Assembly: GCA_938021675.1 (NCBI GenBank)
Contig: CALIFY010000012.1
Coordinates: forward strand, 19,697 to 83,696
Length of the DNA: 64,000 nt
Source of the DNA: an uncultured Acidimicrobiales bacterium
GTDB taxonomy: Bacteria; Actinomycetota; Acidimicrobiia; Acidimicrobiales; SZUA-35
Reading direction: 5' to 3'
Below the pieces are notes generated by a model. It searched no databases. It saw nothing but the letters and a program-made list of their open reading frames with translations, and had not been told where the DNA came from. Position numbers and translations under genes: made by a program. Below, one piece after another: positions 19,959 to 32,211 of this stretch (its first letter is position 1; each line of letters opens with the position of its first letter).

Positions 19959-20873
19959 ATGAAACTCAGGATTGCTACCCGCTCCAGCCCCCTCGCTCGT
20001 TGGCAGGCTGAACACGTTGCTCGGCTGCTCCGGGTCGTCGAACCGACGCTCGACATCGAGTACGTGACGGCGGCGACGCTGGGCGATCGACGGCTTGACC
20101 TTTCGATCGTCGAACTCGGCGGCAAGGGTGCGTTCTCGAAAGAAATTCAGCAGCTGGTACTGGCCGGGCACGCCGATGTGGCTGTCCACTCGGCAAAGGA
20201 CCTTCAAGCTCTCACCCCGGTAGGCCTCGTCATCTCCGCCTTTGTCGAGCGTGGAGACCCCAGAGACGCCCTCGTCGGGGCTCGGCTTGTCGACCTCCCG
20301 GCCGGAGCGTCTGTGGCGACCGGCTCGAACCGTCGCGGCGTGCTCCTCCTCGATCAACGACCCGATTTGGAACTGCGCGACCTGCGAGGAAATATACAAA
20401 CCCGCTTGGCTCAGAGCGGCCGAAACGGTGTCGACGCGGTGGTCGTTGCCGCCGTCGCCCTCGAACGCCTGTCCCTCCAGCCCGAGGTGGTCGACATTCT
20501 GGACCCGACGACGTTTGTGCCCCAGGTCGGACAGGGAGCGTTGGCGGTAGAGGCCAGAGAGGACGACGACTCGGTACGCCACCTTCTGGCCACGATCAAC
20601 CACCACCTGACCGCTACCGCCGTCGGCGCCGAGCGGTCATTCCTGGCCGAGCTCGGTGGCGATTGCAACCTCCCGGCCGGCGCACACGCCACCGTGAACG
20701 GCGATGCAGTGGAGATTCGCGGCGTGTTGGCCCCCGATGCGGGAACCGTCGGACGACGTGGAGCGGCGCCGACCGGGCTTCATCGTGCGATTGAGTCTGG
20801 CTCGGCTTCCGCCGACCCTGGCCGGGTCTTGGCTCGCCGCCTCCGCAAGGCGGTCGAAACCGCCGCCGCTTGA
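19959..20873 (+). CDS. hemC: Hydroxymethylbilane synthase
   Basis: IATRSSPLARWQ, GGKGAFSKE, AVHSAKD, LRGNI, VGQGAL, cofactor Cys in GGDCNLP. Confidence 0.95.
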   Translation: MKLRIATRSSPLARWQAEHVARLLRVVEPTLDIEYVTAATLGDRRLDLSIVELGGKGAFSKEIQQLVLAGHADVAVHSAKDLQALTPVGLVISAFVERGDPRDALVGARLVDLPAGASVATGSNRRGVLLLDQRPDLELRDLRGNIQTRLAQSGRNGVDAVVVAAVALERLSLQPEVVDILDPTTFVPQVGQGALAVEAREDDDSVRHLLATINHHLTATAVGAERSFLAELGGDCNLPAGAHATVNGDAVEIRGVLAPDAGTVGRRGAAPTGLHRAIESGSASADPGRVLARRLRKAVETAAA

Positions 20874-21655
20874 CTGGAACCGTGAGCTGGCCGCTTTCGG
20901 GGCGAACCATTCTTCTCACTCGCGTGCCAGCCGAGAATGCCCCGTTGGCTGCAGAACTGGCGACGTTGGGTGCCCAGGTCGTTGAACTGCCGCTTCTCAA
21001 GGTCGTTCCACCGGCCGATGACGGAGCGGCGCTGAGCGCCGCTGTGGCCAAGTTATCCGACTACGCCTTCGTGGTCTTTACCTCGGCCAACGGAGTACGT
21101 GCATTCGTCGACGCCCGGGAAATCCCCGGCGAGAGTTGGCCAACCGATCTTTCGGTTGTCGCCGTCGGACCGGCCACCGCGGCCGCCGCCACCGCGGCGG
21201 GCCTGGCGGTCGATGTGATGGCGTCGACCGCCACCGCTGCGGCGTTGACCGACGCCCTGCCAGCCGCCGGCGACGACGCCTCCCGAGTGTTGGCCCCCCT
21301 CGCCGAGCAGGCTTCTCCGACGGTCGTCGATGGTTTGACAGCGAAGGGGTATGCCGTCGATCGGGTCACGGCATACCAGACCGTGTCGCCACCTCTGCCG
21401 GACAAGCTCCCGGCGGTTGATGCCATCGCTCTGTTCGCCCCATCGGCCGTCGACCGTTTCGTCGATCGCTACGGGGTTGGCGCATTGCCTCCGGTGGTCG
21501 TGGCCATCGGTCCGTCGACGATGACCCGGCTGGCCGATCTTGGCGTTGGCGGAGCGGCCGAAGCTACTCCTCACACCTCGGCCGGCGTGTTGGACATGTT
21601 GGTGTTCACACTTCAGCGGTCACCAGAACAGGGCCGCTCTACCATGGGCGGGTGA
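20870..21655 (+). CDS. hemD: Uroporphyrinogen-III synthase
   Basis: ILLTR, VFTSANGV, AVGPATA, AYQT, AIGPST; between hemC and hemB with overlapping start/stop codons. Confidence 0.9.
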   Translation: MTGTVSWPLSGRTILLTRVPAENAPLAAELATLGAQVVELPLLKVVPPADDGAALSAAVAKLSDYAFVVFTSANGVRAFVDAREIPGESWPTDLSVVAVGPATAAAATAAGLAVDVMASTATAAALTDALPAAGDDASRVLAPLAEQASPTVVDGLTAKGYAVDRVTAYQTVSPPLPDKLPAVDAIALFAPSAVDRFVDRYGVGALPPVVVAIGPSTMTRLADLGVGGAAEATPHTSAGVLDMLVFTLQRSPEQGRSTMGG

Positions 21656-22638
21656 ACTTCCCTCAGCGCAGGCTCCGCCGTCTCCGAACAACGCCGACCA
21701 TGCGACGGCTTGTCGCCGAGACCAATCTGACCGTTGACGATTTGATCGCACCGCTGTTCGTGAGGGAAGGAATCGACCAGCCCCAGCCGATCCTGTCCTT
21801 GCCCGGAGTATCCCAGCACAGCATCGACTCCCTACGTCGCGAGGTGGAACGGCTCGCCGCGCTCGGCGTGCCAGCGATCATGCTGTTCGGCGTGCCCGTC
21901 GAGAAAGACGGTGAAGGGTCGCAAGCCTGGAACCCCGAGGGCATCGTCCAAGTGGCCCTTCGCCAACTTCGAGAGGACTTGGGCGACGATGTTGTCTTGA
22001 TGGCCGATCTTTGCCTCGATGAATACACCGATCACGGCCACTGCGGTCTCGTCGACGATCGGGGGAGGGTCGACAACGACGCCACCCTCAATCTGTATGC
22101 CGAGGTGGCGTGCGCCCAAGCCGAGGCGGGGGTCGACGTCGTGGCACCGTCGGGGATGATGGACGGTCAGGTGATGGCCATTCGCGATGCTCTCGACGAG
22201 GGCGACTGGACAGAGGTTGGAATCCTTGCGTACTCGGCGAAATACGCCAGTGCTTTTTACGGCCCGTTTCGGGATGCGGTCGACGTCACCATCGTCGGCG
22301 GCGGCGATCGTGCCGGCTACCAACAGGACTGGCGGAACGGGCGAGAGGCGCTTGATGAAATCCGGCTCGATGTGGCGGAGGGGGCCGACATGGTGATGGT
22401 CAAGCCGGCTGTTGCGTACCTCGACATCGTGGCGAGGGCCAGGATGGAAGTCGACATCCCCATCGCCGCGTATCACGTGAGCGGTGAGTACGCGATGCTG
22501 AAAGCGGCCGCTCAGAACGGTTGGATCGACGGTGACGCGGCGGCGCTTGAAGTGTTGACCTCGATCAAACGAGCGGGTGCCGACATGATCTTGACCTACC
22601 TCGCCTCGGAGGTCGCCGAGGTTCTTGCCGCCCGTTGA
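21652..22638 (+). CDS. hemB: Porphobilinogen synthase
   Basis: DLCLDEYTDHGHCG, APSGMMDGQV, YSAKYASAFYGPFRDA, MVKPA, AYHVSGEY. Confidence 0.97.
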   Translation: MNFPQRRLRRLRTTPTMRRLVAETNLTVDDLIAPLFVREGIDQPQPILSLPGVSQHSIDSLRREVERLAALGVPAIMLFGVPVEKDGEGSQAWNPEGIVQVALRQLREDLGDDVVLMADLCLDEYTDHGHCGLVDDRGRVDNDATLNLYAEVACAQAEAGVDVVAPSGMMDGQVMAIRDALDEGDWTEVGILAYSAKYASAFYGPFRDAVDVTIVGGGDRAGYQQDWRNGREALDEIRLDVAEGADMVMVKPAVAYLDIVARARMEVDIPIAAYHVSGEYAMLKAAAQNGWIDGDAAALEVLTSIKRAGADMILTYLASEVAEVLAAR

Positions 22639-24817: not shown

Positions 24818-25690
24818 TCAGCTAGACGCCGCTTCTTCAGCGACGTCCTCTTCGGCCCGAGGACCGGGGCACGGCTCTTCTTCTGGATCCTCAGAACCTT
24901 CTCCGGTGGCGCCCGGTGTCATGGTGGGATCTGCGCAGGCCAGCAAAAAGTCAAGATCGATTGGCTCGTCGACGCCGAGCTCGATCTCTTCTCTCATGTG
25001 TTCGACCCACTCTTCATACCCGGGGGACGTGGTGTCTTCTTCGGCCAAAATGGCTCGCTCATGGTAGACCACAAGTTCGAGCTCAAGTTGGTTCAGACTG
25101 CTTAGCTGCGCCGGCATGGCGCCGCGGCCGCGGGCCCCCGAGACGCGTTGACCGCCCTCTCGATCGGGACTGCCGTACGGTTGGCTATCGATGTCGGCCG
25201 AGCCTCGGGCCACATGGACCATCTGGTCGACGGCCGAGGGGAAGGTTGCGAGAAGTTCGCCGTCGGTAAGGGCATAGCCGACGCCACCGCCGCCGTTGGC
25301 TCCGTGACAGCCCGAGCAGGAGCCGTACAGCTCTGCCGCCTCGATCAACAGTTCGTCTTCTACCTCTGGCTGCTGCATTGTCCCGGCGAAACTCCAGGCC
25401 CAAAGAGGCAGTGCAGCGAGCACCGGGAGGACCCACACCGGGACGCGCTTGCGGGCCATCGCCGCGGTGACGTAGGCCGGCACCGGCTTCGGTGGTTTTG
25501 GAGGGGGATCAAGGTTTGGAAGGTTGGCTGTCGGCTCCGCCACTACCGGTGCAGATTTTTCTGCCGCCACCGGAGCCGAAGTCGGCCCGGTGCTCGCGGT
25601 GGGGGTATCGCCGCCGCCGGCGTCGCCGCCAGACTGCCCGGCTTTTGCCGCCTTGCTTCGCTTCAGTAGATGTTCCGGGATTTCGGTCAT
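24818..25690 (-). CDS. Membrane-anchored mono-haem cytochrome c
   Basis: One TM (VWVLPVLAALPLWAWSF), CSGCH haem motif, distal GAMPAQ Met; N-terminal MTEIPEHLLKRS motif. Confidence 0.85.
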   Translation of the reverse strand: MTEIPEHLLKRSKAAKAGQSGGDAGGGDTPTASTGPTSAPVAAEKSAPVVAEPTANLPNLDPPPKPPKPVPAYVTAAMARKRVPVWVLPVLAALPLWAWSFAGTMQQPEVEDELLIEAAELYGSCSGCHGANGGGGVGYALTDGELLATFPSAVDQMVHVARGSADIDSQPYGSPDREGGQRVSGARGRGAMPAQLSSLNQLELELVVYHERAILAEEDTTSPGYEEWVEHMREEIELGVDEPIDLDFLLACADPTMTPGATGEGSEDPEEEPCPGPRAEEDVAEEAASS

Positions 25691-26045
25691 CGTGTTGTCT
25701 CTCTACCAATCCTCACAGCCGCTACCTGCGATTTCTCGCCGGGTGCGAACGTCTTCCTGGAGAAGCGGCTCCGACACTTCGATGTCAACGGTCCTCCGGG
25801 AGCGGTCTCGACTCGATCGAACGAACGGTATCGCAGCGTAACCGCGCGCTACGGCACCGAGAAACAGTATGCGGCGCAAAGACTATCCAGCCACTCGTGC
25901 GGTCACGACGGGTTGTGACCAAACCTTGATACTGTTCCCACCGGGCCACCGCAGCTCGGTACCATCCGCAGCCTCACGTGTGTCCAACGACCAGTGCATA
26001 GATGTTAGGTTACGGTTGCGTCCTAGGTGGGCGCGGCGAGTACAT

Positions 26046-26063
26046 TTGTGCACAGGTTCACAA
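26046..26063. promoter_or_regulatory. Rex operator (ROP)
   Basis: TTGTGCACAGGTTCACAA matches the Rex consensus TTGTG(A/C)A-N4-TTCACAA; ~77 bp upstream of the respiratory operon; rex is in the window. Confidence 0.8.
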
Positions 26064-26139
26064 ACTCATCAACATCTGTCTGACACTAGAATTCGGGAGG
26101 CCAAGCTCCCTGTCGGATGCTCGAAAGGAGCGCACTGCG

Positions 26140-26595
26140 GTGGTTGCCCTCGTCACATCGATCCTCGTAGCTGTCGTGATGGCGGTCGGCATTTTTTGGT
26201 ACGCCGGCCGACGGCCGGTCGGAACACCGGTGACCTGGGGCGAAGCGCTCGTCGGTTCGGTGTACGTGTTCTTCTTAGCGTTCCTGGCATACGGGGTGAT
26301 CCCGCACCAGTGGCTCACCATGGCCGAGAACGAGTTCAATTTCCGGGCTGATCGGCTACTCGTCGGCCCCGGGGAAATCCTCAAGCCCATCCACCAGGGT
26401 GGTTGGGTGCCGTTCGACATCCCATACCGGGCACTGTCCGACACGGTCGCAGTTATCTTCTATGTCGTGTTTCTTGGGCTTCAGATCTGGATGTGGGCCC
26501 GATGGCAAAACCGGGATAAGCGGGCCGAAAGCAAGGCGCTGCTCGCCAGCAACCAGACAAGTTCGTTTGGTCGACCTCTGCTCAAACAGGGCTGA
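26140..26595 (+). CDS. Hypothetical 3-TM membrane protein, first gene of the Rieske/cyt b-nuo operon
   Basis: AAGGAG RBS before GTG 26140; hydrophobic segments; RRPVGTPVTWGEA and YGVIPHQWL. Confidence 0.75.
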   Translation: MVALVTSILVAVVMAVGIFWYAGRRPVGTPVTWGEALVGSVYVFFLAFLAYGVIPHQWLTMAENEFNFRADRLLVGPGEILKPIHQGGWVPFDIPYRALSDTVAVIFYVVFLGLQIWMWARWQNRDKRAESKALLASNQTSSFGRPLLKQG

Positions 26596-26613
26596 GGGGG
26601 TGCACCGATCACG

Positions 26614-27030
26614 ATGACCACCACCGATGCCAACCCGCCGCTTCCAGAATTTCGGACCGACTACCTCCTCATGGAGGTCGACGCCGACTACTTAGGGCGG
26701 GCGGTGAAGCCCAAACAGTTCATTCATATCGACCAGTCGGAATGCATCGCCTGTGAGGGCTGCGTCGACATCTGCCCGTGGAAGTGCATCCACATGCAGA
26801 CGGTCGACTGCGTCGACGAGGCCTATGGCGCGGTCAAGCCGGGCGACGACCCAAACGATGCGTTTATCTTCACCATCGACGACGACGTGTGTACCCGGTG
26901 TGCACTGTGCGTCGACCGATGCCCAACCGGGGTGATTATCCTCGGCAAGGTCAGCGAACCAAACCCATCCGGTGATCTCCACCAGCGGATGACTTCATAC
27001 GGCTACGGCTACGGCATGCGCCTCGCTTGA
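26614..27030 (+). CDS. 2x[4Fe-4S] dicluster ferredoxin
   Basis: CIACEGCVDICP and CTRCALCVDRCP; no signal peptide. Confidence 0.92.
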   Translation: MTTTDANPPLPEFRTDYLLMEVDADYLGRAVKPKQFIHIDQSECIACEGCVDICPWKCIHMQTVDCVDEAYGAVKPGDDPNDAFIFTIDDDVCTRCALCVDRCPTGVIILGKVSEPNPSGDLHQRMTSYGYGYGMRLA

Positions 27031-27079
27031 GCTGAGCTCAGCACACACAGGGACTACGGAGCAAACGGGAACTCAGCAG

Positions 27080-27871
27080 ATGGCAAAGTCGATTCAAGAC
27101 AAACCGACACTGGCAGAACGGGCGCAAGCCCAAGTGGCTCAGCTCGGCACCAACATGCAGGGCTCACAGGCCTGGAACTCGATCTTTCGACCGGGGTCGG
27201 TGTTTCGTAAGGGCTACACCGACAGCCCTCGAAATCGGTCATACGTCATCATGAACAGCGTGTTGTACCACCTTCACCCGGTGAAGGTAAAACGCCACGC
27301 GGTCAAGGTCAGTTATACGCTGTGCCTCGGTGGCCTGAGCTTCTTCTTGTTCATCCTGCTCACGGTGACCGGCATTTTCTTGATGTTCTTCTATACGCCG
27401 GAGGCCGCTCGGGCCTGGGACGACATCCAGTCGTTGCAAACCCAGATCGCTTTCGGCCTCCTGGTGAGGAACATGCACCGGTGGGGGGCGCACCTCATGG
27501 TGATCTCGGTCTTCCTTCACATGGCCCGAGTCTTTTACCATGGGGCGTACAAGGCCCCGAGGGAATTCAACTGGGTCATCGGCGTGATTCTGCTTACACT
27601 TACCTTGCTGCTGTCGTTCACCGGTTATCTGTTGCCGTGGGATCAGCTGGCGCTGTGGGCCGTGACCGTCGGTACCAACATGATGGGGTTCACCCCGGTC
27701 TTCGGTACCCAGGTCAAGTTCGTCCTCCTCGGTGGAAGCGTGATCGGTACCGACACTCTGCTTCGTTGGTACGTGTTGCATGTTCTGTTCGTTCCGTTCG
27801 TCACCGTAATCTTTATGGCTATCCACTTTTGGAGAGTCCGTAAGGACGGCGGCATCTCCGGGCCCCTCTAG
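27080..27871 (+). CDS. petB: Cytochrome b6-type (split, 4-TM) cytochrome b
   Basis: YTLCLGG (haem ci Cys), HRWGAHLMVISVFLH, FTGYLLPWDQ, LH-x14-H, C-terminal GISGPL. Confidence 0.9.
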   Translation: MAKSIQDKPTLAERAQAQVAQLGTNMQGSQAWNSIFRPGSVFRKGYTDSPRNRSYVIMNSVLYHLHPVKVKRHAVKVSYTLCLGGLSFFLFILLTVTGIFLMFFYTPEAARAWDDIQSLQTQIAFGLLVRNMHRWGAHLMVISVFLHMARVFYHGAYKAPREFNWVIGVILLTLTLLLSFTGYLLPWDQLALWAVTVGTNMMGFTPVFGTQVKFVLLGGSVIGTDTLLRWYVLHVLFVPFVTVIFMAIHFWRVRKDGGISGPL

Positions 27872-27880
27872 GGAGCACAC

Positions 27881-28669
27881 ATGACAGAGATCCCTGAGCA
27901 TCTAAGAAAACGAGCATCCGAGGCGAGGAAGAAGGCCGAGGGTTCCGCATCTGAGGCAACGCCGCCGGCATCGACCGACGCCGGTACATCCTCGGGCGGC
28001 GGGGGATCCGCGTCAAAGATCCCCGAGCATTTACTTCAGCGGTCCAAGTCGGCCAAACAACGCGATGCCGACGGAGGTGGGTCCACCGCCACCGCAGTGG
28101 CCCCGGCCGCGGCAGCGGTAGCCACCGCAACCGCCACCGCGGCGGCGCCGTTACCGACGATGACCGGTCCGGCCGGTCATACACAGCGGCTATTGACCGT
28201 CGTCAAGTCGGGTTCGATCCAAGACATCAAAGCGCAGCCACTCGACAAGGTACACACCTGGCCCCACCTGATCGTCGTCGAGTTTGGCGCCACCTTGGCG
28301 GTCACCGCCTTCCTTACCTTCTTCTCCATCTTCGTCAACGCTCCCTTGCTCCGTCTGGCCGATGTCAACGCCACACCGAACCCGTCGAAGGCACCGTGGT
28401 ACTTCCTCGGTCTTCAGGAACTGCTGACGATGTTCCACCCGATGGTCGCCGGCGTCACGATCCCTGGCATCGGCCTGTTCGCTCTCATGTTGGCGCCCTA
28501 TATCGATCGCAATCCGAGCAATAAGCCAGAGGATCGAAAGTTCGCCGTGTCGGTGTTCACCATATTCATGATGTTCTGGGCGGTATTGGTCATCATCGGC
28601 TCGTTCTTCCGAGGCCCCGGGTTCAACTTCGTGTTCCCGTGGGTCGAGGGCATCTTCTTCGACCTGTAG
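27881..28669 (+). CDS. petD: Cytochrome b6f-type subunit IV with N-terminal extension
   Basis: WPHL, NATPNPSKAPWYFLG (PEWY-equivalent), PYIDRNP..KPEDRK; three TMs. Confidence 0.85.
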   Translation: MTEIPEHLRKRASEARKKAEGSASEATPPASTDAGTSSGGGGSASKIPEHLLQRSKSAKQRDADGGGSTATAVAPAAAAVATATATAAAPLPTMTGPAGHTQRLLTVVKSGSIQDIKAQPLDKVHTWPHLIVVEFGATLAVTAFLTFFSIFVNAPLLRLADVNATPNPSKAPWYFLGLQELLTMFHPMVAGVTIPGIGLFALMLAPYIDRNPSNKPEDRKFAVSVFTIFMMFWAVLVIIGSFFRGPGFNFVFPWVEGIFFDL

Positions 28670-28754: not shown

Positions 28755-29642
28755 ATGTCCTTCGTCTTCATAGGAATCGCAATCCTCGCGATTCTGGCGC
28801 TGGCCATGGTGGCGGTCTCGTTCCGCCGACGCGATACCTACAACGCCATCGGTCAGCTTTCGAGCGAGACCATCAAGCGCGACCGTTCGGTGGCGGTTGT
28901 TGGGGCCGCCGACGTCGGGGCCGAAGAGTCGTCGACGAGTGAGGTCTCCGGCTCGGCCATCGAGGCTCAAGCCCGGGCCGAATGGTCGGGTAGCCTCGTC
29001 CCGCTCGATGACTCGCCGCCTGCGGTGTACGTTCCCCCCGACCCAGAGACGTTGGGGGTCACGCGTCGACAATTCCTCAACCGGGGAATCGTCGCAATGT
29101 TCGGGCTCGGTCTGGCCGCCTTCGGCGGAGCGGTGCTCGCTCAGCTATGGCCAAAGCCAACCGAAGGCTTCGGGGCAAAGCTGAACGTCGGCCGAATCGG
29201 TGACCTCAAGAACGAGATACGATCCAACGGCGGATTCTTCTACTTTCCTCAGGGCCGAATGTGGCTCACCGAGTATCCGACGAGCGCGCTGGCCAAGGCC
29301 GAGACAACGTACGGTTTCTACCCGCAAGTGCAACAGGGCCTAGAAGCAGGAGTGGTTGCACTGTTCCAAACCTGCCCGCATCTTGGTTGCCGGGTTCCGG
29401 AATGTCTCACTTCGCAGTGGTTCGAATGCCCATGCCATGGTTCGCAGTACAACCGGGTGGGCGAAAAGAAGGGCGGTCCGGCGCCTCGGGGCATGGACCG
29501 GTTCCCGATGGAAGTAAACGCCGCAAACGAGCTTCTGGTCGACACTGGAAACGTCATCCAGGGGCCGCCGATCGGCGTCAACACAACAGGTCAGGAAGCT
29601 GAGGGTCCCAACTGCCTCAGCGAGGGTGGTGGACACGGCTGA
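28755..29642 (+). CDS. petC: Rieske [2Fe-2S] protein of the Rieske/cytochrome b complex
   Basis: CPHLGC and CPCHGSQY, GPAPRGM; internal Tat motif TRRQFL plus an extra N-terminal TM. Confidence 0.92.
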   Translation: MSFVFIGIAILAILALAMVAVSFRRRDTYNAIGQLSSETIKRDRSVAVVGAADVGAEESSTSEVSGSAIEAQARAEWSGSLVPLDDSPPAVYVPPDPETLGVTRRQFLNRGIVAMFGLGLAAFGGAVLAQLWPKPTEGFGAKLNVGRIGDLKNEIRSNGGFFYFPQGRMWLTEYPTSALAKAETTYGFYPQVQQGLEAGVVALFQTCPHLGCRVPECLTSQWFECPCHGSQYNRVGEKKGGPAPRGMDRFPMEVNAANELLVDTGNVIQGPPIGVNTTGQEAEGPNCLSEGGGHG

Positions 29643-31288
29643 TGCTGGCTACATATGTTTTTGCCGCCGATTTCAGGGCAATCGGCCTAACGGTCGCGCT
29701 GATCGTCTTTATTGGCTTTGCCGCCGTCTTTGTCTGGAACATGGTTCGGGCCCGGCCCGAATTGGGTTCGGAGATCGAGCTGGCGGCCAACCGGAAGGAA
29801 TATCTTTCCGACGAAGAGCTCGAAGGTGAAAAGCTTGATCGTTCCCTGAGCTTCGCTCTCGTGCTGCTCACCTTACTGGCGGTCACGCTGCCGTTTTATT
29901 GGATCGCAGAACCGGGTCGTCAAGAGGGTGCTGCCGATGCCTACAACCTCTCGTTCGAGAGCCGTGGCGAAGGTAGCTATCTCGAAGGCGCGCAGTGCGT
30001 CAACTGTCATGCCGGTGGTGGCGTCGGCGGTACGGCCCCATATGTACTGCAAGACGTCGACGGTCAGTTTATTGCGAACGCATCCTGGCAAGCGCCAGCA
30101 CTCAATAACGTGTTGCTGCGCTATTCCGAGGACGAAGTCCGTTACATCCTTAACTTCGGTCGCCCCGGTTCCCCCATGGCAGCATGGGGCACCCCCGGTG
30201 GTGGACCTCTCACCACCCAGCAGGTCGACAACATCGTGGTGTACCTGCGAACCCTGCAGCAGCAGAGTTTGGATGTCACCGAGATCGCCCTGGCCGGCGA
30301 TGTCGATCCACAAGACCCCGAGAGTGTCGAAGCTCAGGAGGCGGCCGACGAGGTACAGGAAGCCGTCGTCGCCGAGGTTGAGCGTTCATTGGCCGATGGT
30401 GAGTACGAAACCATCGGTGAGGCCGTGTTCAACCTGGGGCTCCAATCCGGTTTTGCCGGTGGCGCTTTTTCTTGTGGACGATGCCATACCGCAGGCTGGT
30501 CGCTTGGTCTCGATGCCGTTCCCGAGATCCTCGATGAGGGGCACGCCGGTTGTGGTGGCGGCAACCCGTCGGGAATCGGATTCAACCTTTGCGGAGGTTC
30601 GGTCAAAGATCGATTCCCCGATGATTCATGGCTCCGACCGGATGGCACATGGTATGCCCTAGAGCAGTCGGTCGAAGATGGTTTCACCCGACCGAGCGAA
30701 GGTAACCCCGTCGGTTACGACGGCACGTATATCGAGGCGATGGACGGAACCCGAGTCGATCTCGACGACAGCGGAAACCCGATCACCGACGACGGCGAGC
30801 CGTACATCATCCTTCCCGGGGCCGAAACGGCGCCGAGTGCTGCCGCCGATGGCGACGACGACGAGACCGACGAAGAGGCGGATGCGACGCCGACGAGCAC
30901 CGAAGATCGCGATGGCGACTTGGCCGAATGCGGCTTCGTCTCCGGCTTGTGGGAGCCCGAAGGTGGCTCGGTCTACGCCTTCGATCCCTCGGTCGAGATC
31001 GCCGAGGATGAGAACGGTGCCTTCATCGATCCCGATCCACTGGAGTTGGCCGATGCCGGAGCGGACGCCATCGTCCTTCCGGACGGGCAGATCATCGCCG
31101 ACTGCAACATCATCGAGATGCCCCCTCGTACCAGCCAGACCCACTACGCGTTCGTCTATGACGGAGCCGATGCCGGTGAAGGGTATGGCCGAGGCGGATT
31201 GAGTGCTGCCGGGATGATGCCTGGCTTCGGTAGGATTCTGCCGCCTGAGTACATTCAGGCCGTTGTCGACTACGAGCGAGGGCTGTGA
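29642..31288 (+). CDS. Membrane-anchored dihaem cytochrome c with large acidic insertions
   Basis: Two N-terminal TMs, CVNCH and CGRCH, candidate axial Met in SPMAAWG and GMMPGFG. Confidence 0.85.
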   Translation: MLATYVFAADFRAIGLTVALIVFIGFAAVFVWNMVRARPELGSEIELAANRKEYLSDEELEGEKLDRSLSFALVLLTLLAVTLPFYWIAEPGRQEGAADAYNLSFESRGEGSYLEGAQCVNCHAGGGVGGTAPYVLQDVDGQFIANASWQAPALNNVLLRYSEDEVRYILNFGRPGSPMAAWGTPGGGPLTTQQVDNIVVYLRTLQQQSLDVTEIALAGDVDPQDPESVEAQEAADEVQEAVVAEVERSLADGEYETIGEAVFNLGLQSGFAGGAFSCGRCHTAGWSLGLDAVPEILDEGHAGCGGGNPSGIGFNLCGGSVKDRFPDDSWLRPDGTWYALEQSVEDGFTRPSEGNPVGYDGTYIEAMDGTRVDLDDSGNPITDDGEPYIILPGAETAPSAAADGDDDETDEEADATPTSTEDRDGDLAECGFVSGLWEPEGGSVYAFDPSVEIAEDENGAFIDPDPLELADAGADAIVLPDGQIIADCNIIEMPPRTSQTHYAFVYDGADAGEGYGRGGLSAAGMMPGFGRILPPEYIQAVVDYERGL

Positions 31289-32211
31289 TGCAAATACTGG
31301 CGACGGCCGTGCTCGGTCTTATCGACGGAATCGGATTCGATCCGTTTTTCCGTGGCTTCCTCAGCGTCATGGTCGGCGTGGTGGTGTTGATCGGAGGAAC
31401 GTACCTCCTGATCGCCACCAACACCGGCGCTCGCTCCGGCATGATGATCGCCTGCGGCGGGCTCTTCGGGTGGATGTTCCTGATGGGCGTCTTTTGGACG
31501 GTCTACGGCATCGGTTGGGTCGGTGCCGGCCCAACATGGGAACTGGTTGAGATAAACGTCGACGACGTCGAAGACACCGACGATGGTCTGCTGTTCTCCG
31601 AGATCGACGTGGCCCAAGAGCTTCACGCCGTCGATGTGTCGGTTGAAGCCGATGACCCGGACGAGGCGCAGATCCTCGCCCTCGAACGGTCGAACGAAGT
31701 TGACCTTGGGGAGTGGCGGTATCTTCCGACCTCGGACCCGATCCGAGGCGAAGCACAAGCATCGGCCGATGCGTTCCTCATCGAGGAAGGCGTGTTCGAG
31801 AGCGGCGGGTTTCTTCCGTTGCAGTTCGGTGGGTTCACCTCGGGTGGGAAACCGGTATTGACCGACGACCCGAGCATGTTGGATCGAGTCGTTCATTTCT
31901 TCGAAGAGACGTTCCTCAACCCGTCCCATCCCGAGGAACGGATCGTGATCCAAGCCCGGGAAATCATTAACAAACCAGTGCTTCCCGGCGAGCCACCACC
32001 GGTGGCAGAAGTCGACCCTGAACAGCCGTTGGTATCGGTGATCATGGTGCGCGACCGGGGCGGCCCGCTTCCAGCTCTCATTAGTGGCCTGCGATTTACC
32101 CCTCTGGTGTTCACCGTGGCCAACGGCGCGTTGTTCGCTGCCTTCGCCCTGTCCCTGCATTATCGGGATCGACGTGAAGACGAGATCCGGGCTGCCGTAG
32201 CGGCGGGATAG
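31288..32211 (+). CDS. Hypothetical membrane protein (2 N-terminal TMs, acidic exterior domain, C-terminal TM)
   Basis: Coupled to the cyt c stop (TGATG); GGTYLLIATNTGARSG and YGIGW segments. Confidence 0.8.
   Translation: MQILATAVLGLIDGIGFDPFFRGFLSVMVGVVVLIGGTYLLIATNTGARSGMMIACGGLFGWMFLMGVFWTVYGIGWVGAGPTWELVEINVDDVEDTDDGLLFSEIDVAQELHAVDVSVEADDPDEAQILALERSNEVDLGEWRYLPTSDPIRGEAQASADAFLIEEGVFESGGFLPLQFGGFTSGGKPVLTDDPSMLDRVVHFFEETFLNPSHPEERIVIQAREIINKPVLPGEPPPVAEVDPEQPLVSVIMVRDRGGPLPALISGLRFTPLVFTVANGALFAAFALSLHYRDRREDEIRAAVAAG

Follow-up and report, generated by a model that had tools for sequence, protein, structure and literature searches.

We analysed a 64,000-nucleotide stretch of DNA from an uncultured Acidimicrobiales bacterium (GenBank contig CALIFY010000012.1, positions 19,697 to 83,696 of the forward strand; hereafter the window), in which a short peptide, IPEHL(L/R)xR(S/A), occurs three times at one locus: once at the start of a membrane-anchored cytochrome c and twice at the start of subunit IV (PetD type) of a split cytochrome b6-type Rieske/cytochrome b complex. 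This peptide corresponds to the central helix in a small helical module that is class-wide in Acidimicrobiia and nearly class-specific. We favour, with moderate confidence, the view that electron-transfer proteins of this class bear a portable, class-specific cytoplasmic docking module, which the window copies represent in a reduced form with a single helix.

The initial annotation, made from the letters of the window, had placed one copy on the cytochrome c and two on subunit IV, and the translated open reading frames agree. We scored the copies with two profiles: A1, built from 15 N-termini of the longer-form type from other genomes of the class, and A5, for which three-helix modules from other genomes were the sole input, with the window sequences excluded. 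The cytochrome c gene (24818..25690, minus strand; 290 amino acids (aa)) begins with MTEIPEHLLKRSKAAK and holds its single copy, IPEHLLKRSKAAK, at aa 4-16 (25643..25681, minus strand; A1, E = 6.5e-14; A5, E = 1.8e-3). Subunit IV (27881..28669, plus strand) begins with MTEIPEHLRKRASEARK; its copy 1, IPEHLRKRASEARK, lies at aa 4-17 (27890..27931, plus strand; A1 domain E = 2.7e-13), and the second copy, which starts as KIPEHLLQRSKSAK from base 28016, has its core, IPEHLLQRSKSAK, at aa 47-59 (28019..28057, plus strand; A1 domain E = 3.6e-12). No further significant copy was found in the 4.45-Mb genome beyond the three at this locus. A DNA pattern for IPEHL gave 3 matches over the genome, all of them here (the reversed control gave 1), and a nine-residue pattern in six-frame translation retrieved the three window copies and one unrelated VPEHLVARS. 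In a six-frame scan of the genome with A5, the two window reading frames ranked first and second (E = 1.1e-4 and 1.8e-3), and the third-ranked match had E = 0.63.

As had also been noted, each copy is followed by a flexible linker rich in Ala, Pro, Gly, Ser or Thr, and every copy lies ahead of the first predicted transmembrane segment (TM), as judged from composition and hydropathy. In the cytochrome c, the linker spans aa 17-82 (25445..25642, minus strand; A 20%, P 20%, G 11%), closes with a basic ARKR and leads to a single TM anchor, predicted by a Kyte-Doolittle scan at aa 83-101 (25388..25444, minus strand); the haem-binding CSGCH follows at aa 125. In subunit IV, the copies are separated by a linker at aa 22-45 (27944..28015, plus strand; S 29%, A 21%, G 21%), and an Ala/Thr/Gly/Pro-rich linker with a conserved GHTQRLLTVVK segment (28064..28267, plus strand) runs up to the first TM; the whole N-terminal extension of this subunit measures 127 aa. 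The distance from motif to TM is 66 residues in the cytochrome c and 70-112 residues in subunit IV.

With regard to the identity of the two proteins, the product of 27881-28669 matches the PetD family PF00032 (33.6 bits against a cut-off of 20.7) over aa 160-242, and its hydropathy predicts three TMs, the first from aa 130, with peaks within aa 130-239. By both this profile and these predicted segments, it is a homologue of cytochrome b6f subunit IV/PetD. The 290-aa protein has a single predicted anchor and one haem motif and scores below the cut-off of Pfam Cytochrom_C (PF00034; 19.4 against 21.3 bits), which its relatives from other orders pass (47.1 bits in L005 and 31.1 bits in L050).

Conservation of the motif was assessed in the relatives of both proteins, taken here as the 120 among the matches listed for each (71-100% identical for subunit IV, for which 8000 sequences matched, and 52-100% identical for the cytochrome c). 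The motif was present in 119 of the 120 subunit IV relatives and in 118 of the 120 cytochrome c relatives, the other two of which read IPEYLLKKS; in 5 of the 118, the called N-terminus is longer. Two IPxHL copies were found in 119 of the same subunit IV relatives and a single copy in 1, with copy 1, IPEHLRKRA, kept in 119/120 and copy 2, IP(E/A)HLL.RS, in 120/120. The initial annotation had further proposed that the peptide rather than the DNA is conserved, citing ACC GAA ATC CCG GAA in one gene and ACA GAG ATC CCT GAG in the other. These codons stand in the DNA as quoted, and across 30 distinct IPEHL instances from the window and the fetched loci, the residues I, P, E and H are each encoded by every one of their codons, and L by five. 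As the motif is kept in orthologues while synonymous codons vary, selection acts on the peptide. Within it, the polar residues E6, R11 and S/A12 are near-invariant.

Both sets of window copies would face the cytoplasm. The N-terminus of PetD lies on the n-side of the membrane. In the cytochrome c, basic residues before the anchor and a haem domain after it point to an N-in orientation. Taken together, the position of the PetD N-terminus and the charge pattern and haem domain position of the cytochrome c suggest a cytoplasmic location for all three copies. We rejected a twin-arginine or other export or insertion signal. Such signals place a basic motif directly before a hydrophobic segment and are N-terminal only; here the motif stands 66-112 residues from the TM, and copies also occur internally and, in a soluble enzyme, near the C-terminus.

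The window motif aligns to the long central helix of longer forms, which were first seen in loci around motif matches in other genomes of the class, for example at the start of subunit IV in L004 (MVDIPEHLLLRSAEARAKALGISVEQALAEMKG). AlphaFold2 predicts the two-helix form (36 residues) as a helical hairpin with helices at 6-20 and 24-33 (predicted local distance difference test, pLDDT, 81.3). A three-helix subtype has an extra helix in front, as in SELLAKVAEILGAPESLVQRSAEARAEASGNTVDEVLQSWAGG of L004, and reads as a helix, G-(V/M/A)-P and a basic helix; it is predicted to form a three-helix bundle (pLDDT 90.5; predicted template modelling score 0.68). The two subtypes differ in their carriers: the IPEHLL type is found on subunit IV and on an oxidoreductase, the three-helix type on cytochromes c, a FixO-like cytochrome and a polytopic membrane protein. 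In every case, the module is bordered by low-complexity stretches rich in P, A, E and G. The window's order has the central helix only, whereas other orders of Acidimicrobiia have two- or three-helix forms. Since the longer forms occur across the class, the one-helix form of this order would therefore be a remnant, or a precursor, of a class-wide domain.

Profile A1 matched 139 of 151 sampled Acidimicrobiia genomes (115 of the 125 of high quality) and retrieved 693 clusters among 1.84 billion representative proteins (E up to 0.001). A strict DNA pattern was found in 15/22 Acidimicrobiia against 6/279 other Actinomycetota; one of these six matches (G166, L014) reads IPAHLLSRS in an Arg/Ser/Pro-rich frame without a start codon, and we attribute it to chance. 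With A5, all six Acidimicrobiia of other orders matched, as did 1/186 other Actinomycetota, through a partial match at E = 2.8e-4; in the window's own order, 0/8 genomes matched at E up to 0.001, and the window genome itself gave 8.2e-4. Twelve genomes of the class were negative with A1, of which two are incomplete and were left out, and the other 10 were probed with the core of subunit IV. This query found no match in 7 of the 10. In G096, subunit IV is present with a divergent module copy, DIPENLLERAHERVAAMG; in G068 (C243, L060), cytochrome b6 and subunit IV are fused in a 483-aa frame (47% identity to the window subunit IV core), which has no free N-terminus and no module. On these sequences, a separate subunit IV gene appears nearly always to be accompanied by the module.

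The motif is not confined to the cytochrome c and subunit IV; the class-wide module is also found on several other proteins. Subunit IV has 1-7 tandem copies across the class, and membrane-anchored cytochromes c akin to the 290-aa protein have 1-4 N-terminal copies. A FixO-like monohaem cytochrome bears the module at its N-terminus (PF02433, 27.6 bits against a cut-off of 29.6; PF00034, 24.9 bits; rows to cbb3 subunit II in NCBIfam are weak), and a polytopic membrane protein of 370-400 aa, a family without Pfam match, starts with a three-helix module (L041:1465-2679 and L048:532-1635). The alpha subunit of a soluble 2-oxoacid:acceptor (ferredoxin) oxidoreductase carries a module at its N-terminus and a second near its C-terminus, both set between acidic Val/Glu/Pro repeats, in the marine genus g26, whose genomes measure ~1 Mb. 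For one such protein (P0248), TIGR03710 scored 649 bits, and 15 of 120 among the matches listed were classed as this subunit. We read these carriers in four genomes (L017:4980-7292, L030:5460-7955, L031:2678-5437 and L032:645-3335); module matches in frames of 477-920 aa occur in 11/35 g26 genomes, including these four. The carrier alpha subunit is enlarged to about 770-920 aa and has in addition a C-terminal ERV(V/T)ERV repeat, a striking enlargement for genomes of ~1 Mb. Finally, a soluble family of ~325 aa with unassigned fold (P0366, P0444) contains three module copies. Three proteins that were seen once in metagenomes, each with a subunit IV-like start and each perhaps from a chimeric contig, were not counted: P0447 (TIR), P0391 (an aminotransferase fragment) and P0413 (an HlyD/SHOCT fragment).

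The idea that the motif tethers two unrelated subunits thus stands in part. A portable element in 1-7 copies, placed N-terminally, internally or C-terminally, fits a docking element; it is not limited to these two subunits or to this complex. We prefer tethered docking over a signal, a structural part or a lipid anchor, because a basic helix or small domain on flexible tethers, with varied placement and variable copy number, recurs on unrelated proteins of one functional theme. The motif and its conservation, distribution, carriers, placement and copy number are observed and its helical fold is predicted, whereas binding as the function of the module, its cytoplasmic location and any partner that it may have are inferred. 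The disordered tethers would hang the module from proteins of the electron-transfer chain, and the basic central helix would bind a partner shared by the carriers, in the cytoplasm or at the membrane periphery, or a further module copy. Docking would in this way keep the carriers, including an anchored cytochrome c that would otherwise diffuse freely, near the b6-type complex. As a mode of action, a tethered docking element is of a known kind.

The same layout could be read as mutual binding, in which modules of the same or different subtype would bind each other and zip subunit IV, the anchored cytochrome c and the FixO-like tails into a cluster. Two subtypes do exist, tandem copies with spacers are the usual layout of multivalent self-associating proteins, and Foldseek gave weak rows to obligate-dimer ribbon-helix-helix proteins (best E = 2.6). 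Nonetheless, these fold rows are not significant and the net positive charge of the helix disfavours self-association, so that we regard clustering through the modules themselves as improbable. A direct contact with anionic lipids is an even poorer candidate, and we consider it very unlikely. Here, the helix would bind the membrane surface and thereby determine where the N-terminal tails lie or which topology they take. By hand count, the net charge is ~+3 for each window copy, which also shows, as read from the sequence, a narrow Leu/Ala stripe; all membrane carriers have the module before a TM and predicted to be cytoplasmic, and such binding could tie a soluble enzyme with a module at each end to the membrane. 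However, the hydrophobic stripe is buried in the predicted compact bundles of the longer forms, near-invariance at E6, R11 and S/A12 exceeds what lipid binding usually demands, and integral membrane proteins, whose copies lie about 65-110 residues from the TM, need no extra anchor.

Searches of family libraries placed the module in no described family. No model of Pfam-A (2025) or NCBIfam 20.0 covers it, and a profile search of PDB sequences gave 0 matches at E up to 10. Run on 33 single modules, Pfam returned no consistent family, the commonest being MIF in 6/33 (best E = 0.072). With the predicted models, Foldseek against the PDB gave a best E of 2.6 for the two-helix form and of 2.7 for the three-helix form, and a wide VIA search gave best Z scores of 4.5 and 5.8, respectively, the latter to a designed toroid; all of these fold scores fall within the background range of common arrangements. 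In the ESM Atlas, the 36-aa module met unnamed clusters only (0.80-0.86). The peripheral-subunit-binding domain (E3_binding) had no profile match among the 33 modules at E up to 10. Foldseek rows to the ribbon-helix-helix proteins Arc, CopG and VapB were found only at E = 2.6-5.2, with no Pfam match to this fold among the 33 modules; ribbon-helix-helix proteins have an N-terminal beta strand plus two helices, and N-terminal module copies have only 3 residues ahead of the Pro. Literature searches with the motif peptides as strings returned nothing relevant, and among the papers listed by word searches there was none on b6-type, Rieske or ferredoxin complexes of Acidimicrobiia; PMC5600118 contains no passage concerning this class. 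As far as these libraries and searches can tell, the module would be an undescribed family.

The same searches bear on whether the module could be a degenerate helix-turn-helix (HTH) that binds nucleic acid. The three-helix form, in which G-(V/M/A)-P joins a helix to a basic helix, has the outline of such a domain, P0364, which has many copies, sums weak HTH matches to E = 7e-10 for Xre-like-HTH, and VIA gave rows to ANTAR domains (Z 4.4-4.8) and to a LuxR-type domain (3.0). Yet no single stretch of P0364 passes, HTH families had no match at E up to 10 among the 33 single modules, and the VIA rows are in the background range. Moreover, nucleic-acid binding offers no rationale for a module that sits, in up to seven copies, on respiratory membrane proteins and on a metabolic enzyme. 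We therefore give this explanation hardly any credence.

Several observations weigh against tethered docking as the function of the module. No binding partner was found for it, and neither the fold nor the profile searches yielded a family from which a function could be transferred. The one-helix form is not predicted to fold alone, and in a complex prediction the partner chain was given a pLDDT under 50. In the window's genome, only the cytochrome c and subunit IV carry the motif, and the 2-oxoacid oxidoreductase of this genome (contig C41; 60% identical to P0248) is without it; as this genome has two carriers only, the wider carrier set rests on other lineages. Lastly, the single metagenomic carriers P0447 and P0391 may be chimeric contigs.

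If the module docks, a candidate partner is encoded in the same operon. Directly upstream of cytochrome b6, the window has a gene for a 138-aa 2x[4Fe-4S] ferredoxin-like protein (26614..27030, plus strand; Fer4 families), which is found at this place in 14/14 fetched subunit IV loci as well. Its NCBIfam rows are all below cut-off, with NuoI and RnfB types as the best. A b6-type complex with an iron-sulfur protein of its own is unusual. Binding of the module to this protein was the first choice of the initial annotation, ahead of complex I and of the two subunits themselves, and is a sub-case of docking: in this view, ferredoxin would be captured or retained both on the cytoplasmic side of the complex and on the 2-oxoacid:ferredoxin oxidoreductase. 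The constant place of the gene argues for this, as do the basic nature of the module helix and the fact that NCBIfam gives the name 2-oxoacid:acceptor/ferredoxin oxidoreductase to the family of the one soluble carrier that we confirmed in several genomes. In addition, the form of the ferredoxin tail co-varies with the form of the module. A C-terminal tail insertion of 12-16 residues, such as GSLADAAVQNGVYSAPW, is present in 10/10 loci with two-helix forms (including L004:5838-6248, L023:5925-6371, L024 and L026-L029) and in 0/14 loci with one-helix forms (the window and L006-L022); it is accordingly absent from the window ferredoxin. At its start, the insertion is similar to the first helix of the three-helix subtype. 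However, the two-helix loci come from 5 families and the one-helix loci from 13, and the co-variation may rest on one deep split of the class, with as few as one independent event. Furthermore, the FixO-like cytochrome, the anchored cytochromes c and the polytopic protein carry the module without an obvious need for ferredoxin. A complex prediction of the ferredoxin (alignment A2) with subunit IV residues 1-66 (alignment A3), run without controls, scored 0.00 in both runs and speaks neither for nor against binding. On balance, we consider the operon ferredoxin, to which one lead points, a rather unlikely partner.

Taken to its furthest, binding to the ferredoxin would make of the module a class-specific cytoplasmic wiring harness, a speculative proposal that we rate as a long shot. 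The helices on subunit IV, the cytochrome c, the FixO-like subunit and the oxidoreductase would then all dock to the operon ferredoxin and build a ferredoxin-linked b6-type megacomplex. In lineages with a long tail, they would do so by fold complementation, in which the ferredoxin tail (in L004, for instance, GSLADAAVQNG) would make up for the helix that is missing from N-terminal two-helix modules relative to the three-helix form. Low-potential electrons would pass to menaquinone beside the n-side haem. A ferredoxin:quinone reductase activity of b6f has long been debated, and such a harness, if true, would be its bacterial respiratory counterpart.

The operon order, ferredoxin-like protein, cytochrome b6 (27080..27871, plus strand; PF00033, 156 bits), subunit IV, Rieske protein (28755-29642) and cytochrome c, is the same in 14/14 fetched subunit IV loci; the cytochrome c that follows the Rieske gene has 548 aa and a long acidic middle region (29642-31288, plus strand). 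It adjoins a gene for a 308-aa membrane protein without Pfam match (31285-32211, plus strand), which is kept in most loci of the same order. Upstream of the ferredoxin gene lies a gene for a small membrane protein (26002-26595, plus strand) with a weak Yip1 row below cut-off. It is conserved at the same place in L008, L009, L012, L013, L019, L020 and L022, and was not found in the fetched loci of 1-Mb genomes. In cytochrome b6, Cys82 (27323-27325, plus strand) stands in YTLCLGG just ahead of the first TM, at a position that we take to be the covalent site of the extra n-side haem in b6f and Firmicute complexes. Further out, reading frames at 19959-22638 (plus strand) resemble by eye porphobilinogen deaminase, uroporphyrinogen-III synthase and porphobilinogen synthase, presumably for haem synthesis, and those from 32267 onward (plus strand) are, likewise by eye, presumably nuoA, nuoB and nuoC.

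Tethered docking peptides are a known way of organising enzymes; to our knowledge, a bacterial b6-type Rieske/cytochrome b complex has not previously been reported to have one. The module singles out a group of electron-transfer proteins in a class that is widespread and counts abundant marine and soil lineages among its members, and gives a direct handle on respiratory organisation in Acidimicrobiia. The b6-type complex, the anchored cytochromes c, the FixO-like cytochrome and the 2-oxoacid:ferredoxin oxidoreductase probably share a partner or a location. The module also bears on a possible exchange of electrons between ferredoxin and the b6-type complex, which is always accompanied in this class by a ferredoxin-like gene of its own. 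Finally, the series from three helices to two to a single one offers a clear example from nature of homology between a folded domain and a short linear motif.

Among known systems, several resemble the module in part. The peripheral-subunit-binding domain of E2 chains is likewise a helical mini-domain of ~35 residues that is flanked by Ala/Pro-rich linkers and docks partner enzymes; it differs in helix lengths, the module has no Pfam match to it, and the carriers of the module are not E2 chains. The Rubisco-binding repeats of EPYC1 and CsoS2 are also short basic helices repeated with disordered spacers between them. There, the repeats belong to dedicated scaffold proteins, whereas here they are appended to the enzymes and cytochromes themselves. 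The C-terminal peptide of FtsZ combines an acidic residue, I/V-P and a short Leu/basic helix with a long disordered tether and binds hub proteins; the FtsZ of this genome ends in DEFDVPSFLK. We rejected mimicry of this tail, because the position two places after the Pro, where an aromatic residue is central to the FtsZ peptide, varies among H, S, E, K, D, N and Y in the module, and because most module copies lie at the N-terminus or internally and continue into a helix of 15 residues. Lastly, the stromal tail of chloroplast PetD is short, whereas subunit IV of the window has a 127-aa extension in which a motif shared with unrelated proteins occurs twice. The two nevertheless have the subunit and its n-side end in common; the amino terminus of chloroplast PetD is reported (PMC13287000) to be required for the function of b6f and in the feedback control of the STT7 kinase, which makes of it a regulatory or contact site on that face.

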